Positions 7,014 through 41,179 of a stretch of 64,000 nucleotides of DNA are shown piece by piece. Under the pieces are notes generated by a model, which saw nothing but the letters and a program-made list of their open reading frames with translations, ran no database searches and was not told the origin of the DNA. Each line of letters opens with the position of its first letter. Within the stretch, counting starts at the first letter, position 1. Where the stretch lies: assembly GCF_988242995.1 (NCBI RefSeq), contig NZ_OZ547043.1, one strand, 5' to 3'. Position numbers and translations under genes: made by a program.

Positions 7014-7310
7014 TTATACCTCTGAATCAATATCAACCTGGTGGTGAGCAATGGTTTCAACCATGTACCGGATGTGTTCTGCCATGCGCTCCTGAAACTC
7101 AACATCGTCATCAAACGCACGGGTAATGGCTTTTTTGCTGGCCCCGTGGCGTTGCAAATGATCGATGCATAGCGATTCAAACAGGTGCTGGGGCAGGCCT
7201 TTTTCCATGTCGTCTGCCAGTTCTGCCTCTTTCTCTTCACGGGCGATCTGCTGGTAGTAACGCGCCCAGCTCTGAGCCTCAAGACGATCCTGAATGTAAT
7301 AAGCGTTCAT
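7014..7310 (-). CDS. gam: Host RecBCD inhibitor Gam (short form)
   Basis: 98-aa [42 protein letters not shown]... matching lambda Gam. Confidence 0.9.
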
Positions 7311-9281: not shown

Positions 9282-9821
9282 ATGCAACCACTTACATACC
9301 AACAGACTAGCGGATTTAGCCCGACTGCGGTGATAAATCGTTCTCAAACAAAACAGGTGCCAGGCCACGAAAAAATCCGTGATGCCGTCCGCGCCTGGTC
9401 GGCTGTAGATAATCAGGATGTCGTTGCCACACTCATTGTGAATGAGTATCGGGAGCAGGGCGGCGGCACCATCGATTTCCCTGATGATGTCAGCCGTGCA
9501 CGCCAGAAGCTGTTCCGCTTCCTCGATAACAAATTCGATTCTGAAAAATACCGAAATAACGTGCGTGAACTGACCCCGGCAATTCTGGCGGTACTACCGC
9601 TGGAATATCGCGGTTACCTGGTTGAGCAGGATAGCTTCATGGCTAGGTTGGCTGAAATGGAAAAGGAACTCAGTGAGGCAAAACAGGCTGTCATTCTCAA
9701 CGCACCACGCCACCAGAAACTGAAGGAAATTAGTGAAGGTATTGTGTCGATGTTTCGTGTGGACCCAGATCTGGCTGGTCCATTGATGGCGATGGTTACT
9801 ACCATGCTGGGGGCGATATGA
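9282..9821 (+). CDS. YdaT-like protein at the cII position
   Basis: 179-aa ORF following the Cro-like gene; motif TPAILAVLPLEYRGYL recalls the YdaT family as I remember it. Confidence 0.5.
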   Translation: MQPLTYQQTSGFSPTAVINRSQTKQVPGHEKIRDAVRAWSAVDNQDVVATLIVNEYREQGGGTIDFPDDVSRARQKLFRFLDNKFDSEKYRNNVRELTPAILAVLPLEYRGYLVEQDSFMARLAEMEKELSEAKQAVILNAPRHQKLKEISEGIVSMFRVDPDLAGPLMAMVTTMLGAI

Positions 9822-17471: not shown

Positions 17472-17849
17472 ATGCGTGATATTCAGATGGTTCTTGAGCG
17501 TTGGGGAGCGTGGGCGGCTAATAATCATGAAGATGTGACCTGGTCGTCCATTGCCGCCGGTTTTAAGGGATTAATTCCTTCAAAAGTAAAATCTCGCCCA
17601 CAATGTTGTGACGATGACGCGATGATCATTTGCGGGTGCATGGCCCGTCTGAAAAAGAACAACAGCGATTTGCATGATTTATTGGTGGACTATTATGTCG
17701 GCGGCATGACTTTTATGGCGCTTGCACGTAAGCATGGGCGATCTGATTGTTGGGTTGGCAGGATGCTCCAGAAAGCTGAGGGCGTAGTGGAGGGTATGCT
17801 GATGGTATTGGATCTCCGATTGGAGATGGATGCTGATTGTTCGAAATAA
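17472..17849 (+). CDS. quuD: Late-gene antiterminator Q
   Basis: ATG at 17472 with [33 protein letters not shown]... matches DLP12 QuuD. Confidence 0.85.
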
Positions 17850-18721: not shown

Positions 18722-19681
18722 ATGATAAAAAAACCTGTGATTGGAATCAGCGGTTGTCTGGCCGGTTCTGCTGTTCGTTTTGATGGTGGTCACAAAAGAG
18801 CTGACTTTTTAATGGACAAATTAGTGGAATGGGTAACATTCAGACCAGTATGTCCGGAAATGGCTATAGGGCTGCCAGTTCCGCGTCCTGCTCTACGTCT
18901 TGTGCGCTCGACGCAAGGAAATATACGGATGTGTTTCAGCCACGACCAGAATGAGGATGTGACAGAGAGAATGACAGAGTTTAGTCGTTCTTATATGGAC
19001 AAATTAAAGGATGTATCGGGGTTTGTGGTTTGTGCTAAATCTCCCAGCTGTGGCATGGAGCGCGTGCGTGTCTATGATGAAAATGGTAATCGAGGTCGTA
19101 AAGATGGAGTGGGACTATTTACGAGCACTTTGATGGAAAAGTTTTCCTGGCTACCGGTTGAAGAGGATGGGCGATTACATGATCCAGTGCTTCGTGAGAA
19201 TTTTGTTGAAAGAGTTTTTGCTTTGCATGAGCTCAATCACCTTTACAAGGAGAAATTATCAAGAAGAGAGTTATTAGCTTTTCATAGTCGTTATAAGCTT
19301 CAGTTGTTGGCGCATAGTCAGGCAGGCTATAAAGATATGGGACCATTTGTGGCTGCAATACACGAGTGGGCGGACCTTGAATCATACTTTGAGGTGTATC
19401 GTGATAAGCTGATGGCGATTCTCAGAAAACCTGCATCACGTAAAAATCACACGAATGTGCTGATGCATATACAGGGGTATTTTAGTAACTACTTAAGTAC
19501 ACGCCAGCGTAAAGAGTTGAGCGAGGTTATACTTAACTATCGTTCTGGCACATTACCTCTTCTTGCGCCGTTGACTCTGCTGAAGCATTATCTGGGTGAG
19601 TATCCTAATGATTACTTGCTTACACAGAATTACTTCGATCCCTATCCGGACGAACTGGCTCTAAGACTGATGGTAAATTAA
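18722..19681 (+). CDS. DUF523 (Cys-rich) / DUF1722 (YbgA-like) fusion protein
   Basis: 319-aa ORF with strong RBS AGGGGGAGGA; Cys-rich N-terminal half and YbgA-like C-terminal half (domain assignment from memory). Confidence 0.65.
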   Translation: MIKKPVIGISGCLAGSAVRFDGGHKRADFLMDKLVEWVTFRPVCPEMAIGLPVPRPALRLVRSTQGNIRMCFSHDQNEDVTERMTEFSRSYMDKLKDVSGFVVCAKSPSCGMERVRVYDENGNRGRKDGVGLFTSTLMEKFSWLPVEEDGRLHDPVLRENFVERVFALHELNHLYKEKLSRRELLAFHSRYKLQLLAHSQAGYKDMGPFVAAIHEWADLESYFEVYRDKLMAILRKPASRKNHTNVLMHIQGYFSNYLSTRQRKELSEVILNYRSGTLPLLAPLTLLKHYLGEYPNDYLLTQNYFDPYPDELALRLMVN

Positions 19682-29060: not shown

Positions 29061-29315
29061 ATGTCGATGTACACAACCGCCCAGCTGCTGGCGGCAAATG
29101 AGCAGAAATTTAAGTTTGATCCGCTGTTTCTGCGTCTCTTTTTCCGTGAGAGCTATCCCTTCACCACGGAGAAAGTCTATCTCTCACAAATTCCGGGGCT
29201 GGTAAACATGGCGCTGTACGTTTCGCCGATTGTTTCCGGTGAGGTTATCCGCTCCCGTGGCGGCTCCACCTCTGAATTTACGCCGGGATATGTCAAGCCG
29301 AAGCACTTAGCATGA
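29061..29315 (+). pseudogene. E: Major capsid gene E, 5' fragment (codons 1-84) truncated by the satellite insertion
   Basis: MSMYTTAQLLAANEQKFKFDPLF...GYVKPKH then two foreign codons and stop; the rest of E resumes at 40394. Confidence 0.9.
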
Positions 29316-29468
29316 CTTTCTGAGGCTTTCGTGTAGTTGCTGGTTTTTACACTTAATCTTTTGATAATAAAGAATAAGTTTATCTGGTGCTTTCACTGAA
29401 TTTTCCTCGTTATCTGTGTGTTGCAATCATCTCTGTATTGCAGCTTGTATTGCTTTTTGGGGCTAAAA

Positions 29469-30704
29469 ATGGCTGGCGAGAACAAACTGAGCGACAAAGC
29501 GCTTAAAGGATATCTGGGGAAACCCAGAGAAAAGCAGATCACCATTGCTGATGGAAAGGGGCTTTCTATTCGTGTGAGTACTAAAGGGGCTGTGAGCTTT
29601 GTTTTCTTCTACAGGTTAGCAGGTGGCCGGGCTGCTCCGGTCTGGCTAACGTTGGGTAAATATCCTGATATGTCACTCAAACAGGCAAGGGAAAAGCGCG
29701 ACGAGTGCCGTGGTTGGTTGGCTGACAAACGTGATCCGCGTATCCAGATTAAGATTCAGGCTGAAGAACGCTTAAAGCCGGTTACAGTGGAGGATGCACT
29801 AAATTACTGGTATGAAAATTACTGTAAGGTGCGTCGTAAAACTCATGCTGTAACGCTTGGCAGATTTCGAAAGCATATCTTTCCCTATATCGGTCATTTG
29901 CCCGTAAATGACACTCACCTATATGAATGGCTGGACTGTTTTGACCGAATTAAACGTAATGCACCAGTTATGGCGGCGTATGTTTTTTCTGACACTAAAT
30001 TAGCTCTTCGTTTTTGTCGGGTACGCCAGTACGCGACGTGTGATGCTTTAAAGGATTTGCGCATGAGTGATGTGGGGCAGATTGCAGGTAAGCGGGATCG
30101 GGTTCTGGATGAAGCCGAACTCGGCCAGCTCTGGAAGGCAATTTTTGTCGAGCCTGATTTAAAACTAATGTCTGAATACACGCGAAAAATGTTTGTGCTT
30201 TGTACAGTATTTGGATGTCGAATGAGTGAAGCCCGATTATCAGAATGGAGCGAATGGGATCTCGAAAGTTGGGTTTGGACTGTACCAAAAGATCACTCAA
30301 AAACTGGTGTTGAAATCGTCAGACCAGTACCTGAAATTCTACGACAGTGGGTAACGGATGTTCACGAAGAGACAAAACATACTGGTTATGTGCTGGGAAG
30401 TCTGCGAATTAGAGAAAGCGTAAGCAAGATTGGGGGGAAAATCGGTAAACGTTTGGGCCATGAAAAACAATGGTCACTACACGACCTTAGAAGAACGCTA
30501 TCTACTCATCTAAGTGATCTCGGTGTTGAATTTTATGTAGTAGAACAACTGTTAGGCCATGCGCTACCTGGCGTGGCAGGTGTTTACAACCGGAGTAAGT
30601 TTATGGCTAAAAAACTGGATGCTCTGGAACTCTGGACTACATATCTCAATAGCATCGCAGCTGCTGATTCAAAAGTGACAATCCTCAAACAAAAGGTTGG
30701 TTAA
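29469..30704 (+). CDS. Satellite tyrosine integrase (P4-type)
   Basis: From MAGENKLSDKALKGYLG...; catalytic region HDLRRT...LLGH...VYNRS; located at the element's left end. Confidence 0.85.
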   Translation: MAGENKLSDKALKGYLGKPREKQITIADGKGLSIRVSTKGAVSFVFFYRLAGGRAAPVWLTLGKYPDMSLKQAREKRDECRGWLADKRDPRIQIKIQAEERLKPVTVEDALNYWYENYCKVRRKTHAVTLGRFRKHIFPYIGHLPVNDTHLYEWLDCFDRIKRNAPVMAAYVFSDTKLALRFCRVRQYATCDALKDLRMSDVGQIAGKRDRVLDEAELGQLWKAIFVEPDLKLMSEYTRKMFVLCTVFGCRMSEARLSEWSEWDLESWVWTVPKDHSKTGVEIVRPVPEILRQWVTDVHEETKHTGYVLGSLRIRESVSKIGGKIGKRLGHEKQWSLHDLRRTLSTHLSDLGVEFYVVEQLLGHALPGVAGVYNRSKFMAKKLDALELWTTYLNSIAAADSKVTILKQKVG

Positions 30705-30705
30705 C

Positions 30706-30933
30706 ATGAAAAAAATGGCAATTGTTGATAAAAAGGGTCTGGAGTACATTCCTAACATTGACCGAATGATCCGTGAGAAAGAATGTCGGGAGCTAACCAC
30801 TCTTGCGAACAGCACACGCTGGAAGCTGGAGAAGGAAGGAAAATTTCCTAAGCGGATCAAGATTGGTTCCACTGCTGTTGCATATCGTCTTTCAGAAGTG
30901 CAGGCATGGATTCGAGGTGAGTGGGTAGTTTAA
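30706..30933 (+). CDS. alpA: AlpA-family HTH regulator/excisionase
   Basis: 75-aa ORF directly after int; the ORF-track start at 30697 is TTG, ATG at 30706 preferred. Confidence 0.7.
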   Translation: MKKMAIVDKKGLEYIPNIDRMIREKECRELTTLANSTRWKLEKEGKFPKRIKIGSTAVAYRLSEVQAWIRGEWVV

Positions 30934-31002
30934 ATTATCTCAGAATAAAATATTATGAATTACTGATTTGAGAATTTGTACTCAAATCAGTAATAACATT
31001 CT

Positions 31003-31539
31003 TTATAAGAGATTAAATCCAAATAAAGAGTAATCATATACCGGGGTGCATTGCATCCCACTGAATATGCTGATGTTTTTTTCTGTTTCTATCCTTTTTT
31101 CAATAAGTTGTTGTATATTTTTACAGTACAATTTGTGTGTGATGTTATTATCGTAAGCCTGATATAGCAACGTCAATGTTGATGCTATGAAACATGCAGA
31201 AAGAAAATGAACTAGTACATGTGAGCGTTTTTTGGTTGTCCATGATGCATTCGCTTGTGAAATATAAATCATTCTGAGAATGATAATGATGATAGACAGT
31301 AACAGACCACTCAATAAAATAAGTATTGGGTTTGCGTATTTAATTAATGGTTGAGAGCAAAAAACTATTATAGCTCCTGTGACTGCGTATGAGAAAAAGG
31401 AGTAATTAAACTTCTTACTCCTTCTCTCAAGTATTTTAATTTCATCTTGTGTGGGGGTTTTAGATGCCTCTAATATAAGTTTATTAAATGTTTCTGTTAT
31501 CTTGTTTTTTGTGTTTGTGGCTATTTTTTTTAGATTCAT
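31003..31539 (-). CDS. Hypothetical AT-rich membrane protein (2-3 predicted TM helices)
   Basis: 178-aa ORF with hydrophobic segments AVTGAIIVFCSQPLI and ILILLSGLLLSIIIIIL; convergent with alpA. Confidence 0.5.
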   Translation of the reverse strand: MNLKKIATNTKNKITETFNKLILEASKTPTQDEIKILERRSKKFNYSFFSYAVTGAIIVFCSQPLIKYANPILILLSGLLLSIIIIILRMIYISQANASWTTKKRSHVLVHFLSACFIASTLTLLYQAYDNNITHKLYCKNIQQLIEKRIETEKNISIFSGMQCTPVYDYSLFGFNLL

Positions 31540-31889
31540 AGCATTCTAACTCCCTTAACTTATTTATTACTTTCTCTTTATGATAAGAGAGGGGAATGAC
31601 TTGGTAAAGTGATTTGTCATTAATAATGATAATCCTTGCGATAAATATTTCTGCAAGTTATTTACCTGTTTGTTGCTATCTTGTTAAGCGTTGGGTGTGG
31701 TTTATGTTTGGAGCGACTTTATTTAATCGTGATTTTATGGATTTATATTTATATCCTGTAAGATAAGCGCATGTTAGTTCAGGAGTAGTGTCAGATAAAA
31801 TTATTCGGAGTAGAACTACCTTTTCTGTTTATTGCCAGTATTTACATAGCAATGCGCCGTAGTTACTCACATCACGGCGCTGATACTAA

Positions 31890-32195
31890 TTATTCAGATT
31901 CTTTGGCTTTACGCCGCTGGAGTTCTTCACGAGCGACGGCTACGAGTTGCCCGATTTCCTCCGCTGCCTTGATACCGATTTGTTCGACCTTAGCTAAGGC
32001 ATCCAGTGAAGACACGAGGGGATTTTCTCCGCTTCCTTCTGCCTGGCGGCGGGCGATTTCACCGCGCATGGCGGTTACGATAAATCCGGCATTGCTTTCA
32101 CCGTCCAGCTTAACGGATTCCATCCCTTGCATAACATCTAGTGGGACTCTGACAGTTGTCAGTTGTGATTTTGCGTTTTTGTTAGCCGTTGCCAT
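31890..32195 (-). CDS. Putative ribbon-helix-helix regulator (candidate satellite repressor)
   Basis: 101-aa ORF; TVRVPLDVMQGMESVKLDGESNAGFIVTAMRGEIARR fits a beta-strand/helix/G-x-S/helix RHH pattern; divergent from the primase operon. Confidence 0.4.
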   Translation of the reverse strand: MATANKNAKSQLTTVRVPLDVMQGMESVKLDGESNAGFIVTAMRGEIARRQAEGSGENPLVSSLDALAKVEQIGIKAAEEIGQLVAVAREELQRRKAKESE

Positions 32196-32256
32196 TTCTG
32201 AAACTCCTAATCATCGGTGTGTTTCAGTATACACAAAAAAAGAAATACAAAAAGCC

Positions 32257-32292
32257 TTGACGTGTGTTTCATGCGCTCATAACATGAAACAC
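32257..32292 (+). promoter_or_regulatory. Promoter (TTGACG-17 nt-TAACAT) overlapped by a palindromic operator
   Basis: Inverted repeat GTGTTTCATG (32264-32273) / CATGAAACAC (32283-32292) straddles the -10 element. Confidence 0.5.
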
Positions 32293-32385
32293 ACCGAAAG
32301 GATTGTTGAAATACAAAGAGCAACGCCCCGCAGTGCTGGGAACACATACGGGGCGTCTAACCAACAACGTAAACTAGGAGCCGTT

Positions 32386-32583
32386 ATGGTTGCTGTAAAT
32401 CATATACCACACCTTGTACACACACAAACGGCCTTTGTGTGGCGTTTTCTGGCACTGAGTGCCGGAGAATCTCAAATCATCCACGTAACCGCCTGGACGG
32501 AACGCGAAGCGCGTAGCCGTTGCCCGTCCGGTTGTGTTGCTGTATTCGCTGCAAAAATCCGCCAGGGAGTGAGTCATGCTTAA
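32386..32583 (+). CDS. Small hypothetical protein, first gene of the satellite rightward operon
   Basis: 65-aa ORF with AGGAG RBS 5 nt upstream of ATG 32386; the longer ORF-track frame from 31852 is rejected. Confidence 0.45.
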   Translation: MVAVNHIPHLVHTQTAFVWRFLALSAGESQIIHVTAWTEREARSRCPSGCVAVFAAKIRQGVSHA

Positions 32584-32761
32584 AACCTTCCGTGTATTTG
32601 CCCGAGCTGTTAACCCAATAGGCCACACAATTGGTATCGCTCAGAATGTGAAGGCTGTTAATGTTCAGACGGCTATTGCTGCGGTGAGAAGCGAATCATC
32701 AGAATATGGCTTATCACAAGTCATTATTTCAGCAGTGTATGAATTAAAAGAGGTGCATTAA
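32576..32761 (+). CDS. Small hypothetical protein
   Basis: 61-aa ORF; start overlaps the preceding stop (ATGCTTAA). Confidence 0.35.
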   Translation: MLKTFRVFARAVNPIGHTIGIAQNVKAVNVQTAIAAVRSESSEYGLSQVIISAVYELKEVH

Positions 32762-32952
32762 TGCAGGAAATCACATTACACGAAGCCGCTGAACGTGCGC
32801 ACCAGACAGAAATTATTTGCCGCCTTCTTGAGGTATATCCGAACAAAATTACAGATGCTGATATATCCGCGCTGGCGAGCCTACTGGCGCGCCTTTCGGG
32901 AAGTGTCGCTAGTTTCCTCATTGAGGAAGAAAGTAAGCTGGTGGGGGATTAA
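32761..32952 (+). CDS. Small hypothetical protein
   Basis: 63-aa ORF translationally coupled to neighbours. Confidence 0.35.
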   Translation: MQEITLHEAAERAHQTEIICRLLEVYPNKITDADISALASLLARLSGSVASFLIEEESKLVGD

Positions 32953-33174
32953 ATGAATACAGAACGGGAAGTCTTTTTTAAATTGTTAGCATGTGCAGAA
33001 AGTTCATTAACTTTAAATAATTCAGCAAAAGCAATATTAAATATGTGGCTTGATTGCATAAATGACAATGAAGATGCAAATATTGCTTATGGCCTGTTGT
33101 CACTTATTGATGAATCAGCAGAAAAACTCAATGACGCAATAAATAGTGCCCTGCTATCAAATAAGTCGAGTTAA
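32953..33174 (+). CDS. Small hypothetical protein
   Basis: 73-aa ORF, AT-rich. Confidence 0.35.
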   Translation: MNTEREVFFKLLACAESSLTLNNSAKAILNMWLDCINDNEDANIAYGLLSLIDESAEKLNDAINSALLSNKSS

Positions 33175-33191
33175 GTCGAGGAATAAATAAT

Positions 33192-33491
33192 ATGGAAATG
33201 AAAAATTCTGGCTTTATTGCCAGCGGCCCCGCTCGGCCTGAATTTATGAACGGCGATATTTACCGCGATAAATACGGCGGCACGGTAACGATTAAAGGCG
33301 TGGCAGAACGGCGCATCACTTACCGCCGTGAGGGGTATAGCTATGACTGCGTGATGCCTGTTTATCAGTTCCGGCGTGATTTTTCCCTGGTATATGCCGC
33401 ACCCCGCAGTAAGCCCATCAGCAGGGAAAAAGCGCGGGGAAACATCCAGAAAATGAAAAGCATGATTAACGCATTCAGGGGCAAAAAATGA
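33192..33491 (+). CDS. Hypothetical protein
   Basis: 99-aa ORF ending at the primase start. Confidence 0.4.
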   Translation: MEMKNSGFIASGPARPEFMNGDIYRDKYGGTVTIKGVAERRITYRREGYSYDCVMPVYQFRRDFSLVYAAPRSKPISREKARGNIQKMKSMINAFRGKK

Positions 33492-35239
33492 AACTGGCAC
33501 CGAACTTAAAAAAACAGCCACGCGACAGACTGACAGAGGTAATCATCTTTGCAGGTAGTGATGCGTGGAGCCATGCGAAAGAGTGGCGGGAATGGGCGGG
33601 TAAACATATTGCCGCCGACGATGTGCCGCCTGTCGTGCTGGCTGATGAGCAACTGAAAAATATCACCGATTACCGGATCATTGATGAAGATCGTCAGTGT
33701 GTGCGTGTTTACCGCGCAGGACATATCACAGAGCACAGCATGACGCAGATTGTTACGTTACTGGCTGTGGCTGGAGTGAAGACCGTACACGAATACGCGG
33801 GGATTACTGACACCAGCCCAGTGGATTTATCCGAGCAGTTGCCGCGACTCAAAGAGGAATGCGAGCGTGGGGAAAGTCTGGTGCTTAATCTTCCGACGAA
33901 GCAAAAGGCGCAACTTTCACAGATGGCAGACAGTGAACGTGCACAACTACTTGCCGATCGCTTTGATGGTGTGTGTGTTCATGCAGAAAGTGAAATCGTC
34001 CACGTATGGCGCGGCGGGGTATGGTGTCCGGTCAGCACAATGGAGCTGAGCCGCGAAATGGTGGCGATCTATTCAGAGCACAGGGCCACGTTCAGCAAAC
34101 GTGTAATCAATAACGCCGTGGAAGCGTTAAAAGTTATTGCCGACCCCATGGGGGAGCCGTCCGGTGATTTGCTACCGTTCACTAATGGTGTGCTTAACCT
34201 GAAAACGGGGGAATTTTCTCCGCACTCGCCGGAGCACTGGAGCACCACGCACAATGGCATTGAGTACACGCCACCAGTAGCAGGGGAAAACATCCGCGAT
34301 AATGCGCCAAATTTCCATAAATGGCTTGAACATGCTGCAAGAAAAGACCCGCGCAAGATGATGCGTATATGTGCCGCGTTATACATGATTATGGCGAACC
34401 GCTACGACTGGCAGATGTTCATTGAGGCCACCGGAGACGGGGGAAGCGGTAAGAGTACATTTACCCATATTGCCACCCTGCTTGCTGGCAAACAGAACAC
34501 CGTAAGCGCGGAGATGACATCACTCGATGATGCAGGAGGGCGCGCGCAGGTTGTCGGGAGTCGTCTTATCGTCCTTGCCGATCAGCCGAAATATACGGGG
34601 GAAGGCACGGGCATCAAGAAAATCACGGGAGGCGATCCCGTTGAAATTAACCCGAAATATGAGAAGCGATTCACGACGATAATAAGGGCGGTGGTACTGG
34701 CAACCAATAACGACCCGATGATCTTTACCGAACGGGCCGGAGGTGTGTCACGCCGTCGGGTGATTTTCCGGTTCGACAACATTGTAAGGGAGGACGAAAA
34801 AGACAAGGAATTACCGGAAAAGATAGCGGCAGAAATCCCCGTAATTATCCGCCGCTTGCTGGCTAATTTTGCTGACCCTGAAAAGGCACGGGCTTTATTA
34901 CTGGAACAGCGTGACGGTGATGAAGCTCTGGCAATAAAGCAGCAAACGGATCCGGTTGTTGAGCTTTGCGCGGCGCTGGAGTTTCTGGAGGAAGCTCGTG
35001 GGCTAATGATGGGCGGTGGTGGTGACACCGTGAAGTACACGACCAGAAACAGCCTTTACCGTGTCTATATGGCCTTCATGGCATACACAGGAAAGGGGAA
35101 ATGTTTGAGCGTGAATGAGTTCGGAAAGGCTATGAGGTCAGCGGCGAAAGTTTACGGATATGAATATATTACGCGAAAAGTTAAGGGAGTCACGCAGACC
35201 AACGCAACGACTACTGATGATTGCGATGCGTTTTTATAA
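33488..35239 (+). CDS. Primase/SF3-helicase replication protein
   Basis: 583-aa ORF with Walker A (TGDGGSGKST) in the C-terminal half and primase-like N-terminal half; followed by iterons. Confidence 0.8.
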   Translation: MKLAPNLKKQPRDRLTEVIIFAGSDAWSHAKEWREWAGKHIAADDVPPVVLADEQLKNITDYRIIDEDRQCVRVYRAGHITEHSMTQIVTLLAVAGVKTVHEYAGITDTSPVDLSEQLPRLKEECERGESLVLNLPTKQKAQLSQMADSERAQLLADRFDGVCVHAESEIVHVWRGGVWCPVSTMELSREMVAIYSEHRATFSKRVINNAVEALKVIADPMGEPSGDLLPFTNGVLNLKTGEFSPHSPEHWSTTHNGIEYTPPVAGENIRDNAPNFHKWLEHAARKDPRKMMRICAALYMIMANRYDWQMFIEATGDGGSGKSTFTHIATLLAGKQNTVSAEMTSLDDAGGRAQVVGSRLIVLADQPKYTGEGTGIKKITGGDPVEINPKYEKRFTTIIRAVVLATNNDPMIFTERAGGVSRRRVIFRFDNIVREDEKDKELPEKIAAEIPVIIRRLLANFADPEKARALLLEQRDGDEALAIKQQTDPVVELCAALEFLEEARGLMMGGGGDTVKYTTRNSLYRVYMAFMAYTGKGKCLSVNEFGKAMRSAAKVYGYEYITRKVKGVTQTNATTTDDCDAFL

Positions 35240-35252
35240 AAAATGGCAATGG

Positions 35253-35482
35253 TTATCTACCTTGTCTACCTGACTGAAAGAAAATACTTTTATTTCAATG
35301 TATTAATGCAGGTAGATAACTATTTTTCACTGTCTACCTGTTATCTACCTTATCTACCCATTTTTGTAGACAGGTAAGGAGACGGGTAGAGATGAGGTAG
35401 ACAGCTATTTGGGGCTGTCTACCTCCCTGAAACCCGCGCCATTACTGGCCTGATAACTAATCAGGTAGACAAGGTAGACAAG
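35253..35482. repeat. Satellite replication origin iterons (at least 10 copies of GGTAGACA/TGTCTACC in both orientations)
   Basis: Dense cluster of the 8-bp core in a 230-bp non-coding stretch just 3' of the primase gene. Confidence 0.75.
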
Positions 35483-35528
35483 GTGGTGGTGCACAAAAAA
35501 CTTTTTAAACGAGGGGGTAAAAATAAAA

Positions 35529-35786
35529 ATGCACACATCAGGAAAACTGAACAAACATATAAAGCCACATTACCGCGCCCTTGATATGGCTGAACACTGG
35601 CTAAGGGTGGCGATTAAGGCAATAGACCGCAACGCCGGGGAAGGATACGCGAAAGCACATCCCGAACTGATAAGCGCATTCATGACAACGGCGGCTGCAA
35701 ACTTTGCCACGCTGACCGAACGGGAGATTGCTGAAGCGGAGGAAGTGACAACAATCAATATTAAGTCCGGAGAGCAGGCAGCATGA
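35529..35786 (+). CDS. Hypothetical protein
   Basis: 85-aa ORF upstream of and coupled to ssb. Confidence 0.4.
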   Translation: MHTSGKLNKHIKPHYRALDMAEHWLRVAIKAIDRNAGEGYAKAHPELISAFMTTAAANFATLTEREIAEAEEVTTINIKSGEQAA

Positions 35787-36232
35787 CGGCGCAAATATCA
35801 GTTTACGGGCGGTTGGTGGACGACCCGCAGACAAAACAGACCAGCAAGGGCACCCCCATGACGCTGGCGCGTATGGCGGTATCACTGCCCTGCAGTCAGT
35901 CGGATGACGGTCTGGCGACGTTGTGGTTATCTGTCCTGGCGTTTGGCAGACAAGCCGACGCGCTGGCAAAGCATCACAAAGGCGAACTCCTGAGCGTGGC
36001 GGGTAACATGCAGATGAGCCAGTGGACTGGACAGAACGGCGAAACGCGGCAGGGCTGGCAGGTTATCGCAGACAGCGTAATCAGTGCGCGATCGGTGCGA
36101 CCGGGCGGCAAAAAAGGCCAACAGGGGCAGGCTACTGACGCACTGAACAGAGCAAAACAACAGGCAGATCAGCAAGGAAGCCAGCCACCAGAGGGAGATA
36201 ATGAGCAATGGGGAGATGATATCCCGTTTTAA
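35783..36232 (+). CDS. ssb: Single-stranded DNA-binding protein
   Basis: 149-aa ORF with Gly/Gln-rich linker and acidic C-terminal tail ending DDIPF. Confidence 0.8.
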   Translation: MTAQISVYGRLVDDPQTKQTSKGTPMTLARMAVSLPCSQSDDGLATLWLSVLAFGRQADALAKHHKGELLSVAGNMQMSQWTGQNGETRQGWQVIADSVISARSVRPGGKKGQQGQATDALNRAKQQADQQGSQPPEGDNEQWGDDIPF

Positions 36233-36448
36233 ATATTGCCAATAAAAAAAGCCGGAAAAAATAAATTTTCCGGCATGCTACATAAATCCCGACCAAAGGG
36301 AGTGAAGATATTAACACTAATTGTCCGCACTGAAGTTGTCACCCCAAAACTTTATACAACATTGCACTCGGTTGCATGTGTTCGCATGACAAATATCGGT
36401 GATAGCATATATCCACAATTATTTTTAATGAATGCAAAGAGGATGCGT

Positions 36449-37489
36449 ATGGTTGATTTATATTCGCCTACTCAGCTTGTACAGGTAGTTAATGCTGTAG
36501 ATGTACAAAAACAACTAAATGCGTTATTTACCAGTTTGTTTTTTACTCGCTCGGTAATGTTTGAATCGCGCGATATTATTCTTGATACAATCGACGATCC
36601 AAATATCCCAATTGCAGCGTTTTGTTCTCCTATGGTGGGTAGTAAAGTTTCACGTGACGAAGGGTACGAATCAAAAACAATTCGTCCAGGCTATATGAAG
36701 CCGAAAAGCAGCATTGATCCAAATAAGTTAGCTGTGCGCCCTGCTGGTGTGTCACCTGAGCAATACAATGCTTTTGGGGCGCGTAATATTAAAGTTAAAC
36801 AGGCGATTGTAAATCAGGCTAAAGCTATTCGTGCACGTATTGAATGGCTTGCTGTTCAGGCAATCACAACGGGGAAAAATATCATTGAGGGCGATGGTAT
36901 TGAACGTTATGAGCTGGACTGGAATATAAAACCACAAAATATCATCACTCAGTCTGGCGGTACTGAGTGGTCAGGTAAGGATAAAGAAACTTTTGATCCA
37001 AATGATGATATTGAGAGCTACGCAGAATTTAGTGAGGGCGTCACTAATATCATCATTATGGGTGGTAATGTATGGAAGAAATACCGTTCATTCAGAGCGA
37101 TAAAAGAGGCTTTGGATACCCGTCGTGGTTCTAATTCCGAACTGGAAACGGCCCTTAAAGACCTTGGTGATTCGGTGAGTTTTAAAGGGTATATGGGCGA
37201 TGTTGCGATTGTTGTTTACAGCGGGCGTTATACCGACGAGGACGGAACAGAAAAACATTTCCTTGATCCTGATTTGATGGTGCTTGGCAATACGGCTCTT
37301 CAGGGGATTGTCGCCTATGGCGGTATTCAGGATCCGGAGCTAATCCGAATGGGGCTGACTAAAGCCGAACTTGCACCGAAAAACTATATTGTGCCTGGTG
37401 ATCCGGCTATTGAATATGTGCAGACACATTCAGCACCACAGCCAATACCGGCCCGCATCAATCGTTTTGTTACCGTTCGCATTGGCTAA
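36449..37489 (+). CDS. Satellite-encoded major capsid protein homologue (lambda E-like)
   Basis: 346 aa; aligns with lambda E along its length (e.g. IITQSGGTEWSGKDKETFDPNDDIESYA vs NITQSGGTEWSKRDKSTYDPTDDIEAYA; DTRRGSNSELETALKDLG; GDVAIVVYSG). Confidence 0.8.
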   Translation: MVDLYSPTQLVQVVNAVDVQKQLNALFTSLFFTRSVMFESRDIILDTIDDPNIPIAAFCSPMVGSKVSRDEGYESKTIRPGYMKPKSSIDPNKLAVRPAGVSPEQYNAFGARNIKVKQAIVNQAKAIRARIEWLAVQAITTGKNIIEGDGIERYELDWNIKPQNIITQSGGTEWSGKDKETFDPNDDIESYAEFSEGVTNIIIMGGNVWKKYRSFRAIKEALDTRRGSNSELETALKDLGDSVSFKGYMGDVAIVVYSGRYTDEDGTEKHFLDPDLMVLGNTALQGIVAYGGIQDPELIRMGLTKAELAPKNYIVPGDPAIEYVQTHSAPQPIPARINRFVTVRIG

Positions 37490-37498
37490 GGGGGAGCA

Positions 37499-37840
37499 AT
37501 GGCTACTCATTACACTGAACTCATGGCTGGCACTGAAGCACTGGTGACTACGCTGGGGATATTTTCAGCTAATAAAGGGGTAATTCCTGCATTTACGCCA
37601 CTGATGCAGGAAGATGCAACAGGTGCACTGGTGGTATGGGATGGTTCGAGCGTAGGTAAAGCGGTTTATGTTTCCGCTGTACAAATCGACACCGCGAAAA
37701 AAACACAGGCTCAGGTCTATAAGACAGGTGTCTTAAATGTTGATGCTCTGAACTGGCCTGAGTCTGTTAAAGAACTGTCAGTAAAGGTTGCAGCGTTTGT
37801 TGGCTCAGGTATTTCTGTTCAGCCGCTGGCTCGTGTGTAA
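37499..37840 (+). CDS. Satellite-encoded head decoration protein homologue (lambda D-like)
   Basis: 113-aa ORF; TPLMQEDATGALVVWDGSSVGKAV...VYKTG parallels lambda [22 protein letters not shown]...FYKSG. Confidence 0.7.
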   Translation: MATHYTELMAGTEALVTTLGIFSANKGVIPAFTPLMQEDATGALVVWDGSSVGKAVYVSAVQIDTAKKTQAQVYKTGVLNVDALNWPESVKELSVKVAAFVGSGISVQPLARV

Positions 37841-37851
37841 AGGGGGATACA

Positions 37852-38235
37852 ATGCAGAATGATTACAATGACCTTAAGCCAATTGCCGAAATGATGTACC
37901 CGAATCCAGCTGTAGAGGAATTAAAAGCTATCGCTGACAAAATGTGTTTAAGCGAGCGCCTTGTTGATATGAATCAGGTGATGGAAATTACAACCCTGAG
38001 TCGTCGTACACTGCTAAACCTTGAGGCTAGTGGAGAGTTCCCGGAGCGTGTGCAGGTTACGGAAGGGCGTAAGGCCTGGTATTTAAGTGAAGTGATCGAC
38101 TGGATAAATAATATTCCTCGCGCTTCTGAATATTGCCGCGTACCTGTCCCAAAAAAGCCAGATGCGGCGCTATGCCTCAAGATTGAGCGTGTACGCCGCA
38201 ATGCACGGGATGGTCGCTATAAGCTGATTGGTTGA
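37852..38235 (+). CDS. Winged-HTH (AlpA/MerR-excisionase-like) protein adjacent to satellite cos
   Basis: 127-aa ORF; C-terminal MEITTLSRRTLLNLEASGEFPERVQVTEGRKAWYLSEVIDWINN HTH; strong RBS; ends 20 bp before the cos-homologous region. Confidence 0.6.
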   Translation: MQNDYNDLKPIAEMMYPNPAVEELKAIADKMCLSERLVDMNQVMEITTLSRRTLLNLEASGEFPERVQVTEGRKAWYLSEVIDWINNIPRASEYCRVPVPKKPDAALCLKIERVRRNARDGRYKLIG

Positions 38236-38257
38236 TGAAATTAGGGCCCGCTCTGGC

Positions 38258-38465
38258 TGGCGGGTCCTTTCCGGTGATCCAGAACGTTACGGGGCGTCAG
38301 GCGCGCAGATTCTTGCTATTTATGACAATTTTCTGCGATTTGCCGTTTCCGTTCTTCTTCCTCGTAACTTAGTGTTTTTACTAGAAATACCCTCTAAAAA
38401 GAAAGGAAATGACAGGTGCTGAAAACAGGCTTTTGGGTCTCCGTCATTTCCTTTCTCATTTTTAT
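38258..38465. promoter_or_regulatory. Satellite cos site homologous to the prophage cos (variant cosN GGGCGTCAGGCG at 38292-38303)
   Basis: About 210 bp alignable with 22896-23110; flanking and downstream repeat segments conserved, 12-mer differs at 5 positions. Confidence 0.75.
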
Positions 38466-38718
38466 CTAAAAGTAAGCATCGAGGCCACCCCAAATGCTTA
38501 TAGAGGTTATTGTGTCACTATGCGTACTGTTCAGGATTTAAAGTAGCAAGACATCTAGTTGCTTGCAGTTTTGGCGAATGATGTGAGGTTCTCTATAACA
38601 GATAATGTAACAAGTTACTGATATATTCTGTTATGGTTGACTTTAAATTTTGTTGCTCCTTCAATGAATTATTGAGGGGTAAAAATTAGGCGTGATAAGA
38701 ATCGATCACGCCTATTGT

Positions 38719-40035
38719 TTATCTTGAAGAAATTTTAGGCAGGCTTTTTAAAAATAAATCTTTATTTCTACTTGCATCAGTTAAAAGTGTTAGGAATATT
38801 TTATCTGTAGGAGTGCATGTGCTCTTGTTTAACAGTAATTCACCAAGTTTCTGTAATCGAGAGAATTGCCCATCCTCTTGGATTCTGTGACGAAGTGTAC
38901 TATCATTTTTAATAACATCAACAAATGCAGAAACCATGTTAATATCAAAGTGTTCAAACATTTCCAATATTAAAGGTGCAGCCCCATTTGAATAAAAATT
39001 CTTCCTTCCATACTGATAGCTGAAACCACGATGGCCAACATAAGTTTTTGTAATGGCTGAAACAAATTCAACAATATTATCTTCAGGGACGAAACTCGAG
39101 AATGGTAATAATTGGGTTACGATTTTTTCCTCTTCTGACCAATTATCTAAAGACTCGGTGAGTTTATTAATGAGAGGCTCAATAATAACTTTTCGGGATG
39201 CAGGGCTAATATACATCAGTCCATCTACCAATAGTATGAATTGTTGTGCCTTCTCTATCTTATTGTTGTTTCCTGAAACTAAATACTTGTCAAATTGTTG
39301 GCCGACTTTACGTCGGTCGTCTTTTGAAAGTAATGTCCATAAAATAGGTGCGCAAAATTCAATGTTGTTTCTGAGTTCACTTGATATATTGGATGAGCAG
39401 TATGTGCCAAAAAAACGAGAGGATAATTCACTGATATAAATTGCAGGTAGATCTGAAAAGGCTTGCTTAACTGCCAGACTATTTTTATTAAATGTTGCCG
39501 AATCCATTTCTGAAAGATATGTAGTTATATCTATGATGGCTGGTGGAAACTCTTTAGAAAGAACGTATTTATTACAATCATTAATCAGGTTCACTACTTT
39601 GATTAAATCAGGGTCGCTACTTTGTGGATGTCCACCAAATAGATTCCTGGTTTCTCTAGCTTGTTGTAATAGTTTCTGACCTTCTCGATCGATAACTCCT
39701 ATTTTAAATGCTCCATCTATTAAATCAAAGTCGCTCACATAATCCTGAAAATCTTCATACGTTTTAATTTCTTTTTTTTGTTTACACTCTTTGTTGAATA
39801 GATCTAGGCTACGATGAATTATCTTTTGACGTAAATCATCAACTACAGCATTCCAGTAAGCAGTGATGGCACTTCTATAACCTTTTACAGGAAGAACTCT
39901 TATTGCTTCTGAAATATATGGGCAGTCAACTACATCATGCCTCACAGTTGAGAGCGCAGTTTGTAACAATGTAACTTCTGTAGAGTCTAGTGGAGTTGGC
40001 TGCACTAAATGAGAACTTATCTCTGTACCCTTCAT
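38719..40035 (-). CDS. AT-rich 438-aa protein with HEPN-like R-x5-H motif (candidate anti-phage/abortive-infection protein)
   Basis: Single long ORF in the satellite's variable end; RNLFGGH at residues 130-136; no ATPase motifs; own AT-rich promoter region 40036-40150. Confidence 0.6.
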   Translation of the reverse strand: MKGTEISSHLVQPTPLDSTEVTLLQTALSTVRHDVVDCPYISEAIRVLPVKGYRSAITAYWNAVVDDLRQKIIHRSLDLFNKECKQKKEIKTYEDFQDYVSDFDLIDGAFKIGVIDREGQKLLQQARETRNLFGGHPQSSDPDLIKVVNLINDCNKYVLSKEFPPAIIDITTYLSEMDSATFNKNSLAVKQAFSDLPAIYISELSSRFFGTYCSSNISSELRNNIEFCAPILWTLLSKDDRRKVGQQFDKYLVSGNNNKIEKAQQFILLVDGLMYISPASRKVIIEPLINKLTESLDNWSEEEKIVTQLLPFSSFVPEDNIVEFVSAITKTYVGHRGFSYQYGRKNFYSNGAAPLILEMFEHFDINMVSAFVDVIKNDSTLRHRIQEDGQFSRLQKLGELLLNKSTCTPTDKIFLTLLTDASRNKDLFLKSLPKISSR

Positions 40036-40393
40036 TTCAGGATTTTCCTATTCTTTTCCATTTTTCTACTCTATTGAATTTGAAAAAGATATCAAGTTCG
40101 TTCTTGCCAGTTTTAAGTGGAAAATTTGATGTTACCTTATTGAGATAAGGCAGTTCTCTATAACCTATTGTTATTAATTATTTTTATTTTTTTCCAATTC
40201 AGATGTTTAGGGCTAAGAAGTTAAGTGAGAGTTCACAGCAAAACTGCTTCTAGTTCCTCACCGAGGAGCAAAAGGTTAAGACAGCGTACTTTGTATTGCA
40301 CAATGTATTGCAGAACCTTCTTTCGAAAGCTACAACAATCAATTTTATATTGAAAATTCAATCATATCCTTTCGATATTGACTCATATAACCC

Positions 40394-41179
40394 AAGCATG
40401 AGGTGAATCCGCAGATGACCCTGCGTCGCCTGCCGGATGAAGATCCGCAGAATCTGGCGGACCCGGCTTACCGCCGCCGTCGCATCATTATGCAGAACAT
40501 GCGTGACGAAGAGCTGGCCATTGCCCAGGTCGAAGAGATGCAGGCAGTTTCTGCCGTGCTTAAGGGCAAATACACCATGACCGGTGAAGCTTTCGATCCG
40601 GTTGAGGTGGATATGGGCCGCAGTGCGGCCAACAACATCACGCAGTCCGGCGGCACGGAGTGGAGCAAGCGTGACAAGTCCACGTATGACCCGACCGACG
40701 ATATCGAAGCCTACGCGCTGAACGCCAGCGGAGTGGTGAATATCATCGTGTTTGATCCGAAAGGCTGGGTGCTGTTCCGTTCCTTCAAAGCCGTCAAGGA
40801 GAAGCTGGATACTCGTCGCGGCTCTCATTCCGAGCTGGAGACAGCGGTGAAAGACCTGGGCAAAGCGGTGTCCTACAAGGGGATGTATGGCGATGTGGCC
40901 ATCGTCGTGTATTCCGGACAGTACGTGGAAAACGGCGTCAAAAAGAACTTCCTGCCGGACAACACGATGGTGCTGGGGAACACTCAGGCACGCGGTCTGC
41001 GCACCTATGGCTGCATTCAGGATGCGGACGCACAGCGCGAAGGCATTAACGCCTCTGCCCGTTACCCGAAAAACTGGGTGACCACCGGCGATCCGGCGCG
41101 TGAGTTCACCATGATTCAGTCAGCACCGCTGATGCTGCTGGCTGATCCTGATGAGTTCGTGTCTGTACAACTGGCGTAA
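40394..41179 (+). pseudogene. E: Major capsid gene E, 3' fragment (codons 83-341)
   Basis: From KHEVNPQMTLRRLPDEDPQ... to ...DEFVSVQLA, matching lambda E downstream of the break. Confidence 0.9.

Follow-up and report, generated by a model that had tools for sequence, protein, structure and literature searches.

We find that the repeats at the two ends of a phage satellite inserted in a lambda-like capsid gene form two tandem pairs of the half-site TGTATTGC, one pair per attP arm, and we consider it probable from comparative evidence that these four half-sites are the arm-type sites of the satellite's own P4-type tyrosine integrase. This reading, which agrees with the original prediction, draws support from the arm domain of the integrase, the fixed positions of the pairs in both arms, their conservation in related elements and the covariation of the half-site with the integrase N-terminal domain. 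The motif, its positions, the satellite type and the idea of integrase arm binding were published in 2023 by Tommasini, Mageeney and Williams (NAR Genom Bioinform 5:lqad036; PMC10111431), and the finding is to that extent already known. Additions made here are variant pairs in fis PICIs, covariation that favours the integrase N-domain over AlpA, the equivalence with the attP of P4, and an IHF-like site.

The window, meaning the whole stretch of DNA that was analysed (64,000 nucleotides of contig NZ_OZ547043.1, assembly GCF_988242995.1), contains a lambda-like prophage in which an insertion of 11,088 bp (29306-40393) interrupts the major capsid gene E (Table 1). Following a literature search that led to PMC10111431, we identify the insertion as a helper-embedded PICI of the 11capE type: it splits E and carries int, alpA and pri on the strand of E, it joins an int-alpA module to a primase within a small size of about 11 kb, and doubled TGTATTGC flanks the attP centre at a fixed distance on either side. 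The element also encodes its own E-like capsid gene and a D-like decoration gene, and its genes lie on the E strand save those marked (-) in Table 1. The product of alpA is the likely excision directionality factor, and also the rival candidate for binding the pairs. The second AlpA-like gene is found in both the capE and the portal groups.

Two low-GC cargo regions, 38719-40035 (-) and 31003-31539 (-), vary among otherwise near-identical elements and look like accessory-gene hot spots adjoining each att arm. The 438-aa cargo ORF is common to only 11 of the 173 genomes that carry this int; other variants have an Abi-like protein, DUF2971 together with a SWIM protein, or a different 311-aa protein in its place. 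PADLOC gave no match for the cargo ORFs.

Table 1. Positions of the satellite, its junctions and its repeats in the window, and half-sites carried by related elements.
Feature	Position	Strand	Basis, assignment or carrier
Helper E 5' fragment, attB-derived side of attL	29061-29305	+	ORF list; in-silico joining
attL att identity block AGCCGAAGCA	29296-29305	+	
IHF-like site TATCAAAAGATTA, fits WATCAANNNNTTR, between core and left pair	29354-29366	-	
Degenerate extra copy TGTGTTGCA, 17 bp upstream of left pair	29417-29425	+	
Left (int-proximal) pair TGTATTGC-AGCT-TGTATTGC	29434-29453	+	
int, tyrosine integrase with N-terminal arm-type DNA-binding domain (residues 7-93)	29469-30704	+	
alpA, AlpA-family winged-helix protein	30706-30933	+	phrog_2790, excisionase and transcriptional regulator
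Primase (pri)	33488-35239	+	
SSB	35783-36232	+	
Satellite's own E-like capsid gene	36449-37489	+	
D-like decoration gene	37499-37840	+	
Second AlpA-like protein, longer (127 aa), after decoration gene	37852-38235	+	phrog_2790 at 1e-49
Low-GC cargo gene, 438-aa ORF	38719-40035	-	PHROG 27609, function not assigned
Right pair TGTATTGC-ACAA-TGTATTGC	40292-40311	+	
attR att identity block AACCCAAGCA	40389-40398	+	
Helper E 3' fragment	40394-41179	+	ORF list; in-silico joining
Half-site TGTATCAC			Klebsiella, Serratia, Morganella
Half-site TGTATAAA			Serratia L149, Rahnella L152
Half-site TGTAGTCT			Yersinia L154
Half-site GGTACTCA			Xenorhabdus L147
Half-site GGGGTACA/T			Pectobacterium L148, Rouxiella L151
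Half-site GAATAACAG			Sodalis L150
Variant pairs	7113-7132 and 17828-17847 (L145); 9947 (L143); 9967 (L149); 9946 (L147); 9961 (L148); 9967 (L150)		also in L151-L154

Integrase-mediated insertion into E, as proposed originally, is supported by the junctions. The 5' part of E stops at 29305 and its frame picks up again at the AAG at 40394; deleting the insertion in silico, with 29305 joined to 40399, yields a full-length lambda-E-like protein, and the joined DNA aligns without interruption to intact E genes in 80 phage records (best 99.7% identical). The same left junction, together with int, is present in 173 complete E. coli genomes, of which only 11 share this right end, and precise excision of an 11capE type element after helper induction has been demonstrated experimentally (PMC10111431). 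The att identity blocks, listed as agccgaagca and aacccaagca in the supplement of PMC10111431, show two synonymous differences between attL (AGCCGAAGCA) and attR (AACCCAAGCA) and share only AAGCA (29301-29305 at attL); either strands were exchanged at AAGCA or farther right, or recombination with another lambdoid prophage has since replaced the E 5' fragment.

Inside the left end, AGCATGA at 29309-29315 is a 7-bp repeat of E sequence at 40395-40401; it places an in-frame TGA (29313-29315) three codons past the junction, so that the truncated E fragment terminates immediately. In the ClpP-protease group (supplementary attR of PMC10111431; L009, L016 and L045), the sequence next to the core within the element is ..caatGTATTGCATGATGATCC or ..CATTGCATGATGATCC; this puts a TGTATTGC-like word right against the crossover, either by chance or as part of the core site.

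Three left and two right copies of TGT(A/G)TTGCA, all on the same strand, had been predicted at the satellite ends. All are present, but the first left copy is degenerate, which leaves four of the five solid, and it begins at 29417, one base later than the predicted start of 29416. The left pair comprises TGTATTGCA at 29434-29442 and a second TGTATTGC at 29446-29453 whose next base is T, not A, and the right pair comprises TGTATTGCA at both 40292-40300 and 40304-40312; both pairs are tandem on the (+) strand with a 12-bp period. Counted as a single word, TGTRTTGCA shows a weak excess in the window (5 matches versus 1.64 expected, with 2 of 100 shuffles reaching 5), another copy lying on the minus strand at 19354-19362, and the 8-mer TGTRTTGC has seven further occurrences elsewhere. 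Density comparable to that elsewhere in the window would have counted against the prediction, and single 8-mers and 9-mers do occur there at about the background rate, but pairs are confined to the two ends. With up to two mismatches allowed, TGTATTGC-N4-TGTATTGC occurs only at 29434-29453 and 40292-40311 (2 versus 0.05 expected), and none of 100 shuffles gives two. The non-random unit is the tandem pair with its 12-bp period rather than the single word.

Position 4 distinguishes the degenerate copy at 29417 from the other four. Its 5' part is variable even among capE elements (TGTG, TGCG or TACG), and when 15 diverse left arms are compared in the same register, partial conservation is limited to the 3' half (GTTnC), in which two T columns are invariant and one G and one C weaker. 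At most, this copy may be a weak fifth site, and extra single sites appear from the comparison to be a variable feature among groups. In the portal group (L123 at about 2637-2680; L025, L043 and L115) a third perfect copy lies 30 bp downstream of the left pair, as it does in Erwinia L130 with TGTATTGT, and with this additional copy the int start is displaced to +70 to +85. A third copy, GGGGTACTC, is found in L151 as well. A single TGTATTGC at 36760-36767 (-) falls within the satellite's own capsid gene and is kept in L001 and L002, where it is probably conserved merely as coding sequence.

The two pairs hold fixed positions relative to the core. Measured from the core-block centre, the left pair starts 133.5 bp to the right and the right pair starts 101.5 bp to the left, both distances being identical in two E. 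coli variants (L001 and L002); 15 nt separate the end of the left pair from the int ATG. Across attP, the starts of the two pairs lie 231-235 bp apart in capE, portal, ClpP and fis elements. The sequence of the pairs is unlike that of the core, and they stand in both attP arms, distant from the crossover. An IHF-like site separates the core from the left pair (Table 1). It represents an IHF-like element, WWTCAWNNNNTTR, that recurs on the minus strand at -80 from the left pair in nearly all helper-embedded groups, and the strict IHF consensus occurs in the left arms of 5 of 15 representatives versus 0.31 expected; the strict consensus was looked for in the right arm and not found. Promoter scans did not locate the int promoter: their only candidate, TTTACA-18-AAGAAT (29346-29375) ahead of the left pair, was weak, and no conserved one emerged. 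By analogy with KplE1 IntS, it is a conjecture that bound integrase may repress its own gene through the left pair.

Comparison with relatives shows that the pairs outlast the DNA around them. In two E. coli variants whose right-end cargo is different, TGTATTGC again appears twice, with the 12-bp period and at an unchanged distance from the junction; the right pair forms an island of identity in right-end DNA that otherwise cannot be aligned. An unbiased pair scan of viral contigs yielded 120 stretches, in which 51 pair occurrences lie 32-85 bp upstream of int homologues (47-100% identity) and are always co-oriented with int. Many of the other matches are right arms, at fixed distances from junctions in at least five late-gene targets (capsid E, ClpP protease, portal and at least two more) and with unrelated flanking DNA; the leftover matches resemble chance or simple repeats.

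The left pair is retained upstream of integrases that are just 47-58% identical to that of the window. Loci selected by integrase homology rather than by motif all have the pair (Kosakonia, Rahnella, Kluyvera, Erwinia, Arsenophonus and Xenorhabdus, and the E. coli portal, terminase and ClpP groups), and in loci of sufficient length a second pair follows about 10.6-10.9 kb downstream. Within the 160 bp upstream of int, all 23 integrase-selected elements show an exact repeat of 7 bp or more with a 12-bp period. The motif search across homologous elements that had been suggested as a check came out in favour of the prediction: the pair persists in every homologous element, even where the flanks have fully diverged. 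As to sampling, a genome-contig scan with integrase alignment recovered 16 loci only and no fis PICIs, its peptide patterns being too specific, and low-stringency BLAST of int and alpA in E. coli genomes returned only other helper-embedded groups (portal, terminase and ClpP protease) and no outgroups. The fis PICIs and other relatives were obtained through protein search and contig look-ups.

The integrase has the domain expected of a protein that reads such sites. Its N-terminus matches Arm-DNA-bind_3 (PF13356 at E 7.7e-19), alongside PF00589, and two P4-like integrases, HAI7 and HPI, have solved arm-type binding domains (3JU0 and 3JTZ) that match its residues 17-98. An AlphaFold model of residues 1-107 (pLDDT 81) places strands at 24-29, 32-36, 42-48 and 58-65, followed by two helices, and Foldseek with the N-domain model returned 3JU0, 3JTZ and 3RMP and nothing else (E 7e-6 to 6e-5; target-normalised TM 0.77-0.88). 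A separate N-terminal arm domain, with repeats in both attP arms, is the arrangement of heterobivalent integrases.

The motif was described as unique to helper-embedded PICIs and absent from fis PICIs (PMC10111431). We find that fis PICIs and other relatives have 12-bp-period pairs at matching positions, built from half-sites other than TGTATTGC (including TGTATCAC, TGTATAAA, TGTAGTCT and GGGGTAC; Table 1). Their integrases are about 51% identical to that of the window, a distance equal to that of other helper-embedded groups. The Klebsiella variant pair recurs in the right arm, 90 bp before the fis core. The motif goes with the element lineage and not with the host, as Serratia harbours both TGTATCAC and TGTATAAA elements at fis. 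Next to the GGTACTCA-type fis PICI of L147, a TGTATAAA pair at 9712-9731 lies 88 bp left of the attL core; this orphan right arm suggests a lost or decayed tandem neighbour of another arm type.

Helper-embedded elements keep a constant motif with differing cores, and their integrase N-domains are about 64-71% identical versus 47-48% for the rest of the protein. Conversely, fis PICIs have one common core, AGTTCATGCCGTA, and different pairs, and here the integrase C-parts are 65-85% identical versus 53-88% for the N-domains, which are the more variable part. This double dissociation supports, at the level of sequence, tracking of the integrase N-domain by the half-site independently of core specificity. 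Among 10 non-helper-embedded elements, a small and phylogenetically non-independent sample with 7 same-motif pairs, sequence identity of the N-domain separates same-motif from different-motif pairs with an AUC of 0.985, compared with 0.853 for AlpA and 0.836 for the integrase C-part. The class-specific integrase residues (33, 35, 37, 44-47 and 50-59) map to strands 2-4 of the model. Predicting the motif type from the N-domain signature was correct in three of four blind cases, and in the fourth the beta-strand residues were altered, the half-site was new and the AlpA recognition helix was unchanged. One counter-example is the pair L143 and L154, with N-domains 73% identical and different half-sites. 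Taken together, the sites are conserved in relatives and covary with the arm domain independently of the core in this small and related sample, and the comparison supports well the view that the half-site tracks the N-terminal arm domain rather than AlpA, the rest of the integrase or the host.

AlpA is the alternative binder that deserves most attention, since AlpA-family winged-helix proteins bind tandem direct repeats in the att arms of other systems; the pairs would then control the directionality of excision or the transcription of int and alpA. When all element pairs are taken together, AlpA identity and N-domain identity separate the motif classes equally well (AUC 0.91 each; 0.914 for AlpA), and AlpA is listed as an option in PMC10111431. 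However, AlpA recognition helices are diverse among helper-embedded groups that share TGTATTGC (NSTRWKLEKEG, RRHRSLLEKEG, WKQRALLEKKG and SQYIRKLEKKG), and an identical CRTTRY helix is paired with both TGTATCAC and TGTAGTCT. Closely similar AlpAs also occur with unrelated motifs: L148 and L149 are 77.7% identical in AlpA with GGGGTACA and TGTATAAA, L147 and L152 are 76.3% identical with differing motifs, and L149 and L151, whose motifs differ, share 75.5% of AlpA and 85% of the integrase C-part compared with 63% of the N-domain. Sites for directionality factors are normally found in one arm only, whereas these pairs are in both, and an activator would be badly placed at the left pair, which lies against the ribosome-binding site. 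We regard AlpA as an unlikely binder on this evidence. The second AlpA-like protein was rejected as a binder: no homologue was detected in the complete ClpP-group element L009, which keeps both pairs.

That the left pair is only an operator of int, with the right pair unrelated or serving as a packaging, replication or host-factor site, appears very unlikely. The pair does end immediately before int, and in KplE1 arm-type sites overlap the intS promoter and mediate negative autoregulation (PMC2951348), but the same pair recurs at a fixed distance beyond the core, where there is no int gene, and the spacing across attP is constant in elements of four target types. A host-factor site was rejected, as the motif differs within a genus, is shared across genera and follows the element. 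An operator role is compatible with arm-site function and is no substitute for it. Chance matches in AT-rich junction DNA, for which the near-background rate of single words might speak, have next to no probability: this reading is refuted by the pair statistics and by the repeats upstream of int in all 23 integrase-selected relatives, and the pairs are conserved as islands within diverged DNA.

The anatomy, conservation and covariation of the sites and the identity of the arm domain are direct observations of this analysis; integrase binding, a role for IHF and autoregulation we infer. On the integrase arm-site reading, the right end, core and left end would form attP in the excised circle, with about 235 bp between the pair starts. 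An integrase tetramer would hold the crossover ..CC[G/C]AAGCA.. in attP and E through its core-binding and catalytic domains, while its four N-terminal arm domains (residues ~7-93) would dock onto the two pairs. The left arm would be brought back to the core by a bend, probably made by IHF at 29354-29366, and AlpA is probably the directionality factor in excision. Integrase on the left pair probably also damps int expression, because that pair ends so close to the int start.

We think it likely that TGTATTGC is one allele of a family-wide modular arm code. In every subclade of this PICI/P4-type integrase family, such a code would keep one attP scaffold of two co-oriented 12-bp-period pairs, spaced by about 232 bp and with the left one next to int; the half-site of 8 bp would change along with the few beta-sheet residues of the N-domain listed above, and arm domain and sites would be exchanged as a unit, independently of core specificity and AlpA. 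If true, this corrects the published claim that the motif is unique to helper-embedded PICIs and would make protein-DNA recognition by arm domains readable as a code; the scaffold is common to fis PICIs and P4, whose half-sites differ. Our re-examination also narrows the question left in 2023 (integrase, AlpA or an unknown protein) towards the integrase N-domain. If confirmed by experiment, matched sets of arm domains and sites could help to predict satellite attP boundaries from sequence, and could supply orthogonal arm modules for integrase engineering, with core specificity already diversified across 14 prophage late-gene targets.

The closest known system is the published 11capE element itself. 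Tommasini and co-workers reported a doubled motif, tgTGTATTGCantgTGTATTGCa, in helper-embedded PICIs, with two occurrences per attP that share one orientation and lie 81 +/- 2 bp upstream and 132 +/- 2 bp downstream of its centre; they suggested integrase arm domains as binders of the motif while keeping AlpA or an unknown protein as alternatives (PMC10111431). Element type, motif, two co-oriented pairs and positions are the same as in the window and nothing essential differs, although the degenerate copy at 29417 goes without mention there. A search of the searchable literature found no other paper that mentions the motif. In KplE1, P' arm-type sites overlap the intS promoter, and both binding and autoregulation are experimental (Panis et al. 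2010, PMC2951348), whereas for the window element both are inferred; the likeness lies in an attL arm directly upstream of int, such that arm-bound integrase can repress its own gene. The HPI and HAI7 integrases (3JTZ, 3JU0 and 3RMP) are likened by protein and not by arm DNA, their arm domains having the same fold as the int N-domain at only 29-34% sequence identity.

The P and P' arms of lambda attP share the principle of a heterobivalent integrase whose N-domain occupies repeated, distant sites in both arms, with IHF bends between. Lambda differs in having five sites and an int gene that is not preceded by its own arm sites. Its integrase N-domain belongs to a different Pfam family, its P arm also contains Xis and Fis sites, and the orientation of its arm sites is mixed. 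A shared orientation throughout is no general hallmark of arm sites.

The attP arm repeats of P4 were reportedly first described by Pierson and Kahn in 1987. The P4 GenBank record (NC_001609) annotates units named 'attP arm sequence repeat': ATTGGGGGCATA and ATTGGGGGCATC stand in tandem 16-39 bp upstream of int, the core follows, and a second co-oriented tandem pair, GTGGGGGCACAA and AAGGGGGCATAT, lies beyond it. Our search of the open literature for experimental work on P4-like integrase arm sites returned nothing usable. P4 differs from the window element in its half-site (GGGGGCA, not TGTATTGC), in the distance between pairs (about 209 bp versus about 235 bp), in having two more single copies, of which one is inverted and overlies the int start, and in its target, a tRNA gene rather than a prophage late gene. 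Yet P4, itself a satellite, likewise encodes a PF13356-type integrase and has a co-oriented tandem pair of 12-bp units on either side of its core, with one pair immediately before int.
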